In this document: positions 45,506 to 48,227 of the stretch, piece by piece | Layout: each line of letters begins with the position of its first letter | Position numbering within the stretch: the stretch's first letter is position 1 | Source: a virus | Lineage: Duplodnaviria > Heunggongvirae > Uroviricota > Caudoviricetes | DNA: 64,000 bases | Strand: one strand, 5' to 3' | IMG/VR virus record: IMGVR_UViG_2687453522_000001 | Notes under the pieces: model-generated | Told to the model about the DNA's origin: nothing | What the model saw: only the letters and a program-made list of their open reading frames with translations | Databases searched by the model: none | Program-made: the position numbers and the translations under genes

Positions 45506-45701
45506 AATAATAAATTAATTAGTGCATGTGCGCTCTTTGTGGTAGTGCACTTTAACATCGGGAGAATAATCGTGTCATCCAAGGTTAATTATGAGTCGCT
45601 GGCATCGGTCATGCCGCGTAATGAACAGGAAACAGATGCTGTAGTGGACCCTGTAATCGCTGAAATGAATGCTCGCCTGGAGGCTGAATTTGCAGCTGAG
45701 A

Positions 45702-46331
45702 ATGAACATACCACCCAGGGCGACTAGGACTGTTTTTTGTGTCGGTAGCGGTCCGTCACTCACTCGTGAGGACTGTGCTGCTATAGAAAAAACTGGCTGT
45801 TCAATCATCGCGGTTAACAATTCCTGGCAGATGTTCGATGACATTTATGCCTTATACGCCGGTGATTTGTCATGGTGGAAGCAATACGGTTCCACCATAC
45901 CGGGAGGGAGGTTCCGCAAAGTGACAGCCAACCTGGCGGCGGCGAAATCATTTTCGTTGGAGTACAGGCGATATTGTGGACCGGCGGAAGGGGTAAATAG
46001 CGGCGCGCAGGCTATCAGTCTGGCTGCTGAATCAGGGGCTGAAGTAGTGGTATTAGTCGGCTATGACTGTTCTCTGCAAAACGGCCTTCATTGGCATGGC
46101 GCGCACCCTCAAGCCCTACGGAATCCAACGCAGGTGTCTATTTCAAAATGGCAACAGCAGTTCCTGGATACCCGCAAAAAACACGCAGATTTACATATTT
46201 TGAATGCAAGTAGGAGCAGTGCAATTCAATGTTTCCCAAGAATAAATTTAGAGGCAGTGATCGCGTTATTATCGTCGGCAGTGGCCCAAGCGCCGCAAAC
46301 TTTGTTGCGCCGCGCGGAGTGCCGATTATAG
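45702..46331 (+). CDS. Rossmann-like protein with GSGPS motif, paralog 1 (unknown function)
   Basis: VFCVGSGPSL...IIAVNNSW near the N-terminus; start placed at the ATG at 45702 (the track start is 45669). Confidence 0.5.
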   Translation: MNIPPRATRTVFCVGSGPSLTREDCAAIEKTGCSIIAVNNSWQMFDDIYALYAGDLSWWKQYGSTIPGGRFRKVTANLAAAKSFSLEYRRYCGPAEGVNSGAQAISLAAESGAEVVVLVGYDCSLQNGLHWHGAHPQALRNPTQVSISKWQQQFLDTRKKHADLHILNASRSSAIQCFPRINLEAVIALLSSAVAQAPQTLLRRAECRL

Positions 46332-46855
46332 CGGTCAATGGGGCCATCGACTGGCTGAACCGCGCTTCTTATTTTTTCACCCTTGATCCATCCCCAGACA
46401 ATATGCGGCGCGTTGGTCGTGGCCGCCGTCGCCGTGGTGTTTGTTATTGCATGGCACTACCCGATGTTAAAGAACGTGAAGTCAGAGATGGCGTTCTGTG
46501 CTTCCGTCGTGTGGCTGAACGCGGCATGGAGCCAAAAAATACGAATTCTCCCGAGTGGTGGGCGTGGCGCTGGTCCGCACATTTCGGCCTTTGCGAAGAT
46601 GAGAATGAAATTGCCAGCGGCAATAGTGCATATGGTGCTCTGAACCTGGCTTTCCATATCGGATTCAAACATGTAGCTCTGGTGGGCGTTGACGCTACGC
46701 AAGAACTACGCGTTCACTCCGGCGGCACGCCAAAAAATCTAAGTCACCTGCCTTTGTTATTCCAGTCTGCGCGTGAACAGATTGACGTTGTTTCATGCGG
46801 GAAAATGGGAGGTATTCCGCAGATGACTCTTAAAGAATGGCTGAAGAATACATGA
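46229..46855 (+). CDS. Rossmann-like protein with GSGPS motif, paralog 2 (unknown function)
   Basis: [10 protein letters not shown]...[10 protein letters not shown]; shares motif order with paralog 1; the ORF overlaps paralog 1 by about 100 nt. Confidence 0.5.
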
Positions 46856-47529
46856 TGGCACCCACAATTTATCACCGTATCGACGGTACCAAATACAGGA
46901 ATGTCTGGGTTGTTGGTGATCTGCATGGTTGCTACACCAGACTGATGTCCGAACTCCATCGTGTGGATTTTGACCCGGCGCAGGATTTACTGATATCGGT
47001 CGGCGACCTTATCGATCGCGGTACTGAAAATGTCGAATGTCTGGAACTATTGCAGATGCCCTGGTTCAGGGCAGTGATGGGGAACCATGAGCGGTTGATG
47101 CTCGATGCGTTAAGTCCTGATGGCAACGTGAATAACTGGCTAATGAATGGCGGACAATGGTTCTTCATGCTGGACACTGATCAGGAAATATTAGCCAGGG
47201 CGCTGGTGGAGCTGGTAAAGCGTCTGCCCTATATCATTGAGTTGAACACCGGGCAAGAAACTATCGTTATAGCCCATGCCGACTATCCGGATAATGAATA
47301 CCAATTCGGTAAGGAGGTGCCGCTTTTCAACGTTGTCTGGGCGCGCGAGCGTATCAGTGATTCGATGGATGATATTGGTGGCGAAATTTCGGGCGCAGAT
47401 CGTTTTATCTTTGGTCACACTCCGGTGAAAAGCCCGAAGACATTCTGGAATCAGCAGTATATCGACACTGGTGCCGTATTTTGCGGAAACCTGACATTGA
47501 TGAAAGTGAAAGGTGATGGTGCAGCATGA
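46837..47529 (+). CDS. ppp: Ser/Thr protein phosphatase (PPP-family metallophosphoesterase)
   Basis: GDLHG, GDLIDRG and GNHE metallophosphatase motifs in order. Confidence 0.75.
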
Positions 47530-48227
47530 AGATTGCTTTAGTTCTTCGCTCTGGTGGTGACTATAACGCTTCCGATGTGCAGTGGCTGGTTAATCAACTG
47601 CCAAAAGACTATGAAATTATTTGCCTGACAGACCTGAAGTGTTTACATGTACCTGGCGTCAAAGTTATCCCATTGATCAACCAGTGGCAAAAGTGCCGTG
47701 GCTGGTGGGCGAAAATCGAGTTGTTCCGACCGGATATAACCGATGATCTGTTCTATCTGGATTTGGACACGGTTATTGCCGGTGATATACGCCCAATCCT
47801 AGAGCATCCACCAACCAGCTTCACCATGCTTAGGGATTTTTACCATCCACAATATCGTGGTAGCGGTGCCCTGTGGATACCAAATAGTGTTAAAGCGCAT
47901 ATCTGGAGTTCATTCTGGCAAGATCCGGAAGGTTGGATTTCTCGTTGTGTCACTACTGAGTGCTGGGGTGACCAGGGGTTCTTACGAAAGGTTATGGGCG
48001 ATGATACACCAGCATTTCAGGATCTGTATCCAGGATGGTTTGTAAGTTACAAGGCCGATGTTGTGGAACCTGGTTCAAAATATGCGAGCGCGCGTTACTC
48101 CAGGGGGAATGGGGCATTACCAAAAGACTGCCGAATAATCTTTTTCCACGGCAAACCGCGACCTCGCGAAGTGTCAGAGGATTGGCTCCCCCTTATCAGC
48201 TCATTTTTTGAGCGAGAATCAGAATAA
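47526..48227 (+). CDS. putative glycosyltransferase-like protein (DxD motif)
   Basis: 233 aa; YLDLDTVI DxD-like motif; family assignment tentative. Confidence 0.4.

Follow-up and report, generated by a model that had tools for sequence, protein, structure and literature searches.

The genes pmgO, pmgP and pmgQ of bacteriophage P1 appear from their sequences to constitute a conserved and mobile glycan-building cassette that is widely shared among phages, and this cassette probably decorates a virion protein or a lipid of the host outer membrane. The reading preferred here, to which a probability of about 0.4 is given, is O-glycosylation of a virion protein with CMP-Kdo and UDP-hexose of the host; gene structure, paralogy, fold and family relationships, conservation of the cassette, its link to capsid genes and dispensability are shown here, whereas we infer which sugars are donated, in what order the reactions run and what the acceptor is. 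P1 is among the most heavily used phages in genetics, yet about 20 of its pmg genes are still without known function; four P1 genes now have a concrete and cheaply testable hypothesis, and dozens of genomes from the environment and from prophages share the P1 cassette. Should a virion protein be the acceptor, particle glycosylation would be revealed in phages of Gram-negative bacteria, as the first virion glycosylation in such phages and the first protein-linked Kdo; immune recognition, stability and host range may then be affected, which is relevant to phage therapy and to P1-based delivery vectors. If the acceptor is lipopolysaccharide (LPS), the cassette would be a new phage route for rewriting the inner core with WaaZ-like enzymes.

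The operon in phage P1

The window, that is, the whole 64-kb stretch of DNA that was analysed, is phage P1 (99.6% identity), and the cluster is the P1 operon pmgN-pmgO-pmgP-ppp-pmgQ. The genes pmgO, pmgP, ppp and pmgQ are not new, since they are annotated already in P1 records. RefSeq labels pmgO "alpha-2,3-sialyltransferase" and pmgQ "glycosyltransferase", and databases call pmgP "norphogenetic protein"; the labels of pmgO and pmgP are misleading or uninformative under either acceptor. An initial annotation made from the sequence alone had described four consecutive co-directional genes. The open reading frames are present as described, and the motifs quoted for them are found in the translations: VFCVGSGPS...IIAVN in PmgO, VIIVGSGPS...IIAVN in PmgP and YLDLD in PmgQ. 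The features are listed below in window coordinates; those of the P1 annotation were carried over from record AF234172 as window = locus + 39999.

44572..44590, + strand: late promoter LPpmgL, annotated in AF234172
45473-45499, + strand: predicted sigma-70 promoter PpmgN (P1 annotation)
45512-45528, - strand: C1 repressor operator Oppp, formerly Op83 (P1 annotation)
45572..45727, + strand: pmgN, an ORF of 51 aa, function unknown (P1 annotation; PHROG 2350)
45669..46331, + strand: pmgO, 220 aa (PHROG 4603, E 4e-74)
46229..46331, + strand: pmgO/pmgP overlap, 103 nt, pmgP being in the -1 frame relative to pmgO
46229..46855, + strand: pmgP, 208 aa (ORF, P1 annotation)
46837..47529, + strand: ppp, 230 aa (Pfam Metallophos; PHROG 246)
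47526..48227, + strand: pmgQ, 233 aa (PHROG 1962 "glycosyltransferase", E 1e-127)
48229..48245, + strand: C1 operator OpmgRa with promoter PpmgR (P1 annotation)

According to the P1 annotation, the operon lies among morphogenetic genes and behind a late promoter, LPpmgL, which sits 5' of pmgL and pmgM and is able to read through into the cluster. Besides the late promoter, the operon has an early promoter of its own that is repressed by C1, so the cluster should be silent in lysogens; such a promoter suits a role directed at the host no less than one directed at the virion. The C1-controlled unit begins with pmgN, which overlaps the start of pmgO, while OpmgRa and PpmgR open the next transcription unit and thereby give the downstream boundary of the cluster. 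A simple consensus promoter scan did not recover the annotated promoters, PpmgN included. All of pmgO, pmgP, ppp and pmgQ are dispensable for plaque formation by P1, and none of the four products has been found in P1 virions. A role in anti-phage defence was ruled out, because the PADLOC defence models gave no match for PmgN, PmgO, PmgP, Ppp or PmgQ.

Fold and relatives of PmgO and PmgP

The paralogy of PmgO and PmgP, proposed in the initial annotation, is true but distant. BLASTP aligns the N-terminal loop alone (E 0.003), and the family profiles, compared without the fused protein P0051, align over 172 columns with 99.4% probability (E 1.8e-21). The loop, an NSG motif and a G-x-D motif are invariant in both families, and the paralogs are predicted to be nucleotide(-sugar)-binding enzymes of the Rossmann type, in agreement with the nucleotide-binding loop first suspected. 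Profile and structure comparison places both among enzymes, with WaaZ as the relative of PmgP and Maf as that of PmgO, and they have the sialyltransferase-like or MptE-like fold that is common to Maf, GT42 and WaaZ.

For PmgO, whose predicted structure has a pLDDT of 85.6, the best PDB match of the model is the Maf glycosyltransferase 5mu5 (E 1.8e-4, probability 1.0), and the protein is predicted to be a Maf-like CMP-ulosonic-acid glycosyltransferase. The three-dimensional fold is shared by the solved members of the MptE-like or DUF115 superfamily (PF01973), which includes Maf and WaaZ. A precomputed PF01973 match is present in many PmgO homologs; the scores of PmgO and PmgP themselves, 23.4 and 20.9 bits, do not reach the gathering threshold of 34.6 bits. 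Single-sequence searches with PmgO and PmgQ against solved structures likewise gave nothing significant, and family profiles were required. The family alignment of PmgO contains the invariant motifs GPSL, N50, D66, NSG, GYDCS and HWH. Maf differs from the phage proteins in being about 630 aa long with additional domains, whereas PmgO and PmgP are cores of about 200 aa with 12-18% sequence identity to it, and in its donors, since the host of P1 makes neither pseudaminic nor legionaminic acid.

The likeness to the GT42 sialyltransferases Cst-I and Cst-II of Campylobacter jejuni is fainter, with sequence E-values of 0.05-0.7 and no Pfam Cst-family match for PmgO or PmgP. The comparison of Cst-II with the family profiles is not significant (best E 0.14 for PmgO and 0.054 for PmgP) and covers the motif regions only. 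Conserved histidines follow the GT42-like motifs, namely H141 and H143 in PmgO and H173 in PmgP; their counterpart in Cst-II would be His188, the equivalence being putative. CMP-sialic acid, the GT42 donor, is absent from E. coli K-12, so the name "sialyltransferase" is probably wrong as to the donor.

The same fold is found in pyrophosphokinases such as MptE and thiamin pyrophosphokinase, which counts against a glycosyltransferase function. PmgO and PmgP might accordingly be diphosphokinases resembling MptE or thiamin pyrophosphokinase, or SteA-like nucleotide-binding regulators, with a small molecule as substrate. This is considered very unlikely. MptE (8sd5, PF01973) is an archaeal 6-hydroxymethylpterin diphosphokinase, a kinase in the synthesis of folate-type cofactors, whereas pmgO and pmgP are not surrounded by cofactor genes: a GT8-like enzyme, other glycosyltransferases and methyltransferases are nearly always encoded beside them, as is typical of glycan assembly. 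Moreover, the closest relatives in sequence are WaaZ and, at the level of motifs, the Cst sialyltransferases. Literature searches on DUF115 or Maf in phages and on the P7 gene names hdmB, hdmC and hdmD found nothing relevant.

PmgP and the Kdo transferase WaaZ

Profile comparison identifies PmgP as a full-length homolog of WaaZ (RfaZ) of E. coli K-12 and Salmonella, described as the LPS Kdo-III transferase: the PmgP and WaaZ families align over 190 columns with 97.2% probability (E 3.1e-11). The corresponding values for the PmgO family are 82 columns and 49.8%. WaaZ and PmgP both have the MptE-like domain signature, and they have in common the motifs (I/V)I..SGP(S/T) and IIAVNG, a conserved central helix and G-(V/L)-D. 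They differ in length (283 aa for WaaZ, 208 aa for PmgP), and PmgP, unlike WaaZ, comes from a phage and has a paralog and a GT8-like enzyme as partners. His173, the candidate catalytic residue of PmgP, is not conserved in WaaZ in the profile alignment read by eye. Against the WaaZ equivalog model (TIGR04437 / PF27901, cut-off 200 bits) PmgP scores 11.9 bits and PmgO gives no match, so PmgP is not a WaaZ ortholog. KdoT of Acinetobacter was also considered as a relative and was ruled out as an unrelated GT-B enzyme.

CMP-Kdo is the sole CMP-sugar of E. coli K-12. From this and from the homology to WaaZ we infer that PmgP may transfer Kdo onto Kdo.

The relationship to WaaZ is the starting point of the main rival to virion glycosylation, which is regarded as possible, though doubtful: that PmgP, perhaps together with PmgO, adds Kdo in the manner of WaaZ to Kdo2-lipid A or the inner core, and PmgQ adds a hexose. 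This remodelling would occur on nascent LPS at the cytoplasmic face of the inner membrane and would alter or truncate the core; it could remove the terminal-glucose receptor of P1 or block other core-binding phages. Overexpressed WaaZ is reported to truncate the outer core of LPS (Frirdich 2003). The receptor of P1(S) is the terminal glucose of that outer core, and Kdo2-lipid A is conserved in Gram-negative bacteria, so that one cassette could serve very different hosts. PmgO and PmgP are also basic like WaaZ (isoelectric points 9.3, 9.5 and 9.25, respectively), but this is no help in telling the acceptors apart. Temperate phages often carry accessory genes that modify LPS. On the other hand, PmgP lies far below the equivalog cut-off, and the C1 operator on the promoter means that no expression is expected in lysogens, the state in which conversion of the surface would pay. 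LPS made late, moreover, cannot replace that which is already on the surface.

PmgQ

PmgQ is expected to be a remote DxD glycosyltransferase of the GT8 type and a retaining enzyme. Its family profile matches AgtA (6mw5, E 3.3e-8, profile positions 34-198), glycogenin (E 1.9e-4) and GlyE (5gvv, E 2.1e-4), which bears out the glycosyltransferase-like character attributed to the YLDLD protein at first. In an alignment of 50 sequences D79, L80 and D81 are invariant and H208, G209, P211 and P213 are at least 90% conserved. The C-terminal H-G-x-P-x-P thus formed occupies the place of HxxGxxKPW of GT8 and aligns with the WaaO motif that ends in KPW. Typical GT8 enzymes are larger than the PmgQ relatives (about 200-230 aa), and a Pfam search up to E 1 gave no family for PmgQ, Glyco_transf_8 included. 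The similarity to WaaO, the GT8 enzyme of LPS synthesis in E. coli, is weak (10.7% probability), which speaks against remodelling of LPS.

Distribution of the cassette

Conservation was assessed with 66 diverse viral contigs, each chosen for a PmgP relative and scanned with narrower alignments; the initial scan of viral contigs brought back P1 clones only. PmgQ is present in 61 and PmgO in 52 of the 66 contigs, PmgO, PmgP and PmgQ occur together in 52, and the cassette genes are all on one strand in every contig (66/66). A methyltransferase is included in 27/66 cassettes and an extra glycosyltransferase in 5/66, the most frequent gene orders being O-P-MT-Q and O-P-Q. The trio is found too in prophages of Gamma-, Alpha- and Betaproteobacteria and of Bacteroidota. 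All hosts that were identified are Gram-negative, which fits CMP-Kdo as a universally available donor.

The initial annotation had joined all four genes into one small modification pathway. That view stands for PmgO, PmgP and PmgQ as a single sugar-transfer module and is not supported for the phosphatase. The assignment of Ppp to the PPP family is itself well founded: GDLHG, GDLIDRG and GNHE are in the translation, the Pfam Metallophos match has E 8.7e-16, and residues 11-229 match chain residues 3-221 of the lambda phosphatase 1G5B (E 5.8e-95). Ppp is, by sequence comparison, the ortholog of the Ser/Thr protein phosphatase of bacteriophage lambda (NinI, ORF221), with 64% identity according to the P1 annotation and an end-to-end alignment. 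It differs in genomic position from the lambda-type setting, as ppp of P1 lies inside the glycosyltransferase cassette.

Ppp could be a working step of a four-gene pathway, for example by dephosphorylating a sugar-phosphate intermediate or the acceptor. The genes follow each other closely (pmgP and ppp overlap by 19 nt, ppp and pmgQ by 4 nt), and P1 shares the four-gene operon, ppp included, with P1-like phages of Escherichia, Salmonella and Pantoea. Such a pathway is nevertheless improbable, because Ppp is present in only 4/66 diverse cassettes, all four from P1 relatives, and cassettes in other prophages are without it. Between pmgP and pmgQ, other P1-like relatives have either nothing or an additional glycosyltransferase, and phage D6 has Ppp without pmgO, pmgP and pmgQ, among small genes that resemble lambdoid-phage genes. 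We know of no such glycosyltransferase cassette in lambda, the source of the orthologous phosphatase. Ppp therefore looks like an unrelated passenger, a lineage-specific insertion between pmgP and pmgQ in the P1 lineage.

As possible substrates the initial annotation had named DNA, a virion protein and a host envelope component. The latter two are kept as readings, and DNA is the least likely: that the cassette glycosylates the bases of phage DNA is considered extremely improbable. Phage glycosyltransferases have been reported to add sugars consistent with Kdo or heptose to 5-hydroxymethylcytosine (5hmC), and in one Bacteroidota relative the cassette adjoins genes for ribonucleotide reductase and dCMP deaminase. 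However, 5hmC systems need a methyltransferase/TET pair and use GT-B enzymes, no 5hmC-generating genes were found alongside the cassette, and the cassette usually lies in the head-gene operon rather than in the replication module. To our knowledge, P1 DNA carries methylation only.

Link to the capsid and proposed function

At least 23/66 contigs have head genes upstream of the cassette and on its strand, and the cassette is directly 3' of the major capsid gene in 11/66. Conversely, a PmgO-like gene is the very next gene after 28 of 68 relatives of the HK97-type capsid gene. Capsid proteins with the cassette have Ser/Thr in the last three residues in 19/19 distinct tails, against 6/23 of those without it, shared ancestry being uncorrected in this comparison; in a second cassette-associated set 13/13 tails end in this way, and one capsid protein has a 30-aa tail of PSTPASS repeats. 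The position after the capsid gene in many HK97-type phages and the Ser/Thr capsid ends favour O-glycosylation of a virion protein, while remodelling of LPS leaves the correlation with Ser/Thr tails unexplained and does not account for the many relatives that hold the cassette in a late structural operon.

In virion-protein O-glycosylation, the cassette enzymes would work in the cytoplasm. Maf is a flagellin O-glycosyltransferase for nonulosonic acids, and PmgO, which is nearest to it, would transfer a CMP-activated ulosonic acid to Ser/Thr of the protein. PmgP, as a homolog of an enzyme that adds Kdo onto Kdo, would add a second ulosonic acid, and PmgQ, with its GT8-like DxD and downstream conserved His, would use a UDP-sugar to add a hexose; many relatives also have a SAM-dependent methyltransferase, with capping of the glycan as its proposed task. 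Because CMP-Kdo is the only CMP-sugar available, a short Kdo-containing O-glycan is proposed as the product. A structural protein of the virion would be the most likely acceptor; in relatives it would be the major capsid protein, modified on its C-terminal tail. The outcome would be a non-essential surface decoration of the particle. A broader statement, that tailed phages infecting Gram-negative bacteria, with P1 among them, attach a short Kdo-containing O-glycan to virion proteins of their own, typically at Ser/Thr of the extreme C-terminus of the major capsid protein and with host LPS precursors as donors, is held only tentatively and is less likely to be true than not.

Several observations stand against a virion acceptor. 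Of the characterised relatives of PmgP the nearest is WaaZ, whose acceptor is LPS and not protein, and we know of no bacterial precedent for Kdo as a protein-linked sugar. In P1 itself the cluster does not adjoin the capsid gene, and the capsid protein ends in ...TIDAGDSE, unlike the tails of the HK97-like relatives. Neither proteomics of P1 virions nor deletion of pmgO, pmgP and pmgQ in frame revealed a structural or plating phenotype; virion decoration could be silent in such assays. A literature search on capsid glycosylation in Gram-negative phages found nothing relevant.

A precedent exists in mycobacteriophages, where phage-encoded glycosyltransferases, as in the cassette, are linked to glycosylation of the capsid. 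The mycobacteriophage cassettes, which decorate capsid and tail proteins, differ from that of P1 in enzyme families, in hosts (Gram-positive-type actinobacteria) and in sugars. The mycobacteriophage sugars sit on C-terminal extensions of the capsid subunit, and growth does not depend on them. We know of no MptE-like or WaaZ-like enzyme in mycobacteriophage virion glycosylation.

Overlap of pmgO and pmgP

An overlap of about 100 nt between the paralogs had been noted, with a frameshift to be excluded; its exact length is 103 nt and it is genuine. Sequencing error was ruled out because 80/81 P1-like copies have pmgO of 220 aa, pmgP of 208 aa and the identical 103-nt overlap, and the remaining copy differs only in being without pmgQ. 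Within the overlap lie the codons for the conserved GSGPS N-terminus of PmgP and for a non-conserved C-terminal tail of PmgO: the PmgO family profile stops near residue 203 and the pLDDT drops to 64-78 in the tail.

In distant relatives the genes overlap in the same -1 register or are fused in a single ORF, as in the natural PmgO-PmgP fusion P0051 of one distant phage, and pmgP is in the -1 frame at 7/7 loci examined. A formal slippery heptamer, A_AAT_TTA, is present in the window at 46244-46250. A PmgO-PmgP fusion by programmed -1 frameshifting was ruled out, since the heptamer is missing from 4/6 other loci examined, the RNA downstream of it folds no better than shuffled sequence (z = 0.22), and a slip there would remove the conserved C-terminal LExxL helix of PmgO. 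Therefore, pmgO and pmgP are taken as ordinary overlapping genes, and their translation is probably coupled.

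Locus and gene layout

Sequence identity marks the window as a phage or plasmid-prophage of the P1 type: over positions 45000-49000, it matches Escherichia phage P1 at 99.6% and one P1-like isolate at 99.9% identity. The four open reading frames of the initial annotation are present exactly at the positions claimed for them, all the motifs quoted there are found in the translations, and the genes correspond to pmgO, pmgP, ppp and pmgQ of P1.

Genes of the region (window coordinates)
45572-45727, pmgN, a 51-codon gene ahead of pmgO (PHROG 2350, unknown function)
45669-46331, pmgO, annotated P1 gene
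46229-46855, pmgP, annotated P1 gene
46837-47529, ppp, annotated P1 gene
47526-48227, pmgQ, annotated P1 gene

From pmgO to pmgQ, successive genes overlap by 103, 19 and 4 nt. Upstream of pmgN are a predicted sigma-70 promoter and then, in the P1 annotation, the C1-repressor operator Oppp/Op83, with the late promoter LPpmgL farther upstream; the pmgR C1 operator and promoter are annotated directly 3' of pmgQ. The late promoter is the sole basis of the label "morphogenetic", which in RefSeq NC_005856 is misspelled for pmgP as "norphogenetic protein", a typo that many database records of PmgO and PmgP homologs have inherited. Near the cluster are also pmgM (44927-45505), annotated as a VRR-NUC nuclease-domain protein, and pap (49864-50370), which the P1 record lists as a putative acid phosphatase and whose N-terminal DxDGT motif looks HAD-like. 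The region thus has two phosphatases, Ppp and Pap, neither of which is related to the glycosyltransferases.

Plaque formation is unimpaired when pmgO, pmgP, pmgQ (Gonzales et al. 2022) or ppp is deleted in frame or when these genes are knocked down by CRISPRi, and the P1 virion proteome of 27 detected proteins includes none of the four products. Because they are dispensable and absent from the virion proteins, PmgO, PmgP, Ppp and PmgQ are regarded as non-structural accessory enzymes. By CRISPRi screening, the neighboring pmgN was classed as essential (efficiency of plating, 1.4e-2), yet its in-frame deletion is reported to be non-essential; we speculate that a dCas12a block close to the operator and promoter accounts for this discrepancy.

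The conserved unit is PmgO, PmgP and PmgQ

Among 66 diverse viral contigs, each containing a distant PmgP relative, 61 encode PmgQ, 52 encode PmgO and 52 have the full trio, and the cassette genes are on the same strand without exception. In addition, the trio occurs in prophages of Enterobacterales, Cellvibrionales, Acetobacterales, Methylophilaceae, Brevundimonas and one Flavobacteriales genome. On account of this co-occurrence across contigs and prophages, PmgO, PmgP and PmgQ are considered to be the conserved functional unit. As an accessory module the locus is real and conserved; it is composed like a small cluster for glycan assembly, and the enzyme activities predicted for it are assigned with good confidence. 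A SAM-dependent methyltransferase (MT) accompanies the cassette in 27 contigs and an additional nucleotide-sugar transferase in five, the most frequent gene orders being O-P-MT-Q (13 contigs) and O-P-Q (11). Reduced variants consist of O and Q, of P and Q, or of O with a methyltransferase and a 280-amino acid protein (PHROG 6804) of unknown function and without a Pfam match. In the last, a common variant (L104:6561-8007; also loci L176, L181 and L225-L242), the PHROG 6804 protein and a class I methyltransferase replace PmgP and PmgQ, directly 3' of a capsid gene or lysis genes.

The phosphatase does not belong to this unit. Ppp is an ortholog of the lambda protein phosphatase (E 5.8e-95). It is found in only four of the 66 cassette contigs, all P1 relatives, and phage D6 has ppp without pmgO, pmgP or pmgQ. 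Therefore, ppp is a separate accessory gene, which was inserted where the cassette is variable, between pmgP and pmgQ. Accordingly, of the single four-gene pathway first proposed, the glycan-assembly part is supported and the role of the phosphatase is not; that Ppp nevertheless takes part in such a pathway is improbable.

Within the cluster, pmgQ is the gene that varies most among 80 P1-like contigs (L007-L086), its open reading frame being shortened or altered in about nine, while pmgO and pmgP do not vary in length. An insertion sequence (InsB) appears to be present in the pmgQ region of phage phi456.

The pmgO-pmgP overlap

The 103-nt overlap at 46229-46331 had raised the concern of a sequencing frameshift, which is now ruled out. 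Among 81 P1-like copies (the window and 80 IMG/VR contigs), 80 encode a PmgO of 220 amino acids and a PmgP of 208 amino acids with an overlap of 103 nt, and the remaining copy lacks only pmgQ. Furthermore, in six distant loci the start of the PmgP gene overlaps the end of the PmgO gene, likewise in the -1 frame, and one phage contig encodes a natural in-frame fusion of PmgO-like and PmgP-like proteins (P0051, L003:8001-9131, 376 amino acids). The overlap is consequently genuine. On the PmgP side it encodes the conserved N-terminus including GSGPS; on the PmgO side, only a non-conserved tail of low confidence in the model. The frequent O-P order, the overlapping frames and the natural fusion together suggest that PmgO and PmgP act as a pair. 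The fusion gene lies directly 3' of lysis genes and is followed by genes for a PmgQ homolog and for another putative nucleotide-sugar transferase.

A programmed frameshift joining PmgO to PmgP was also considered and is unsupported. A formal -1 slippery heptamer, A_AAT_TTA in the pmgO frame, is present inside the overlap at 46244-46250, where a slip would put PmgO into the PmgP frame, but the heptamer is not conserved among relatives and no significant RNA structure follows it.

Protein families

By BLASTP the likeness of PmgO and PmgP is limited to the N-terminal loop, whereas their family profiles align over 172 columns (99.4% probability, E 1.8e-21). The paralogy first seen in the two GSGPS proteins is thus borne out, and the two are true, old paralogs. 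The predicted structures are confident (pLDDT, 85.6 for PmgO and 95.2 for PmgP), and the best Foldseek match of PmgO is Maf, a flagellin nonulosonic-acid O-glycosyltransferase. The PmgP family shows nearly full-length homology to WaaZ, the Kdo-III transferase of LPS (probability 97.2%, E 3.1e-11, 190 columns), and WaaZ proteins themselves carry the Pfam MptE-like domain; PmgP itself scores 11.9 bits, below the WaaZ cut-off of 200, and so is not an ortholog. Diphosphokinase-type chemistry of PmgO and PmgP is held to be an unlikely alternative to these glycosyltransferase assignments. PmgQ has no Pfam match, but its family profile matches GT8 structures, AgtA (E 3.3e-8) and next glycogenin and GlyE, with an invariant DxD motif and a conserved C-terminal His motif.

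Donor and acceptor

No sugar-nucleotide synthesis genes are found in this P1 region, and E. coli K-12 is not known to make CMP-sialic, CMP-pseudaminic or CMP-legionaminic acid. Should the donor of PmgO and PmgP be a CMP-sugar, as it is for their relatives, CMP-Kdo is the only candidate, which fits both the homology of PmgP to WaaZ and the hosts identified for the cassette, all of them Gram-negative.

As the acceptor, a virion protein is ranked first, with a probability of about 0.4. In environmental relatives the cassette is inside the late structural operon: it is directly 3' of the major capsid gene in 11 of the 66 contigs, and at least 23 have head genes upstream in the same orientation. 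Starting from the capsid, a PmgO-like gene is the very next gene in 28 of 68 HK97-type relatives. The last three capsid residues include Ser/Thr in 19 of 19 distinct C-termini with the cassette next, as against 6 of 23 without it (Fisher p about 5e-7, uncorrected for phylogeny; loci L174-L253, for example L175, L179 and L225). These tails, such as ...LPASA and ...SLTAS, end in Ser/Thr(-Ala), and an independent PmgP-seeded set has Ser/Thr tails in 13 of 13. The capsid protein of L183:4752-6284, immediately before a PmgO-like gene, even has a 30-residue C-terminal tail of PSTPASS repeats. Moreover, Maf is a protein O-glycosyltransferase, and the best PmgQ matches are GT8 enzymes making protein-linked glycans. 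The trio is also interspersed with genes for an inverse autotransporter and other Big_1 surface proteins in Pseudescherichia chromosomes, a context which hints at glycosylation of surface adhesins. In this non-phage setting (L092:235-14419; also L091 and L093-L095), the PmgO homolog is directly downstream of a 1178-amino acid inverse autotransporter (IAT_beta and seven Big_1 domains), and the adjoining PmgP and PmgQ homologs are amid three more Big_1-containing proteins.

The main rival acceptor, only somewhat less likely, is the LPS inner core, at which the closest characterized relative of PmgP acts; the P1 receptor is the LPS core, and Kdo2-lipid A is universal among the hosts. However, the position of the cassette in the late operon disagrees with this, as does repression in lysogens: the P1 promoter is C1-repressed and the genes are therefore not designed for expression in the lysogen, a point that counts in favor of a virion protein as well. 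Modification of DNA by the cassette is likewise accorded only a small share of the probability.

The genes themselves are known, pmgO and pmgQ being already annotated in RefSeq and PHROG as "sialyltransferase" and "glycosyltransferase", respectively. In the literature found, PmgO and PmgP are not described as paralogs, nor PmgP as a homolog of WaaZ; likewise absent from it are the cassette of three genes with its broad distribution, the status of Ppp as a passenger and the link to Ser/Thr-tailed capsid genes. Known phage glycosyltransferase cassettes serve O-antigen conversion, DNA glucosylation and mycobacteriophage virion glycosylation, from which the P1-type cassette differs by its MptE-like/WaaZ-like enzymes.

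Proposed mechanism

With a virion protein as the acceptor, PmgO would make the first linkage of the glycan, moving Kdo from the donor CMP-Kdo onto the hydroxyl of a Ser/Thr; from motif order, its conserved H141/H143 region may occupy the position of CMP-phosphate binding in Cst-II, the Campylobacter jejuni GT42 sialyltransferase. PmgP would then add a second Kdo onto the first, by analogy with WaaZ, which adds Kdo III onto Kdo II. PmgQ would probably add an alpha-linked hexose via its DxD/His metal site, and in relatives a methyl group may cap the glycan.
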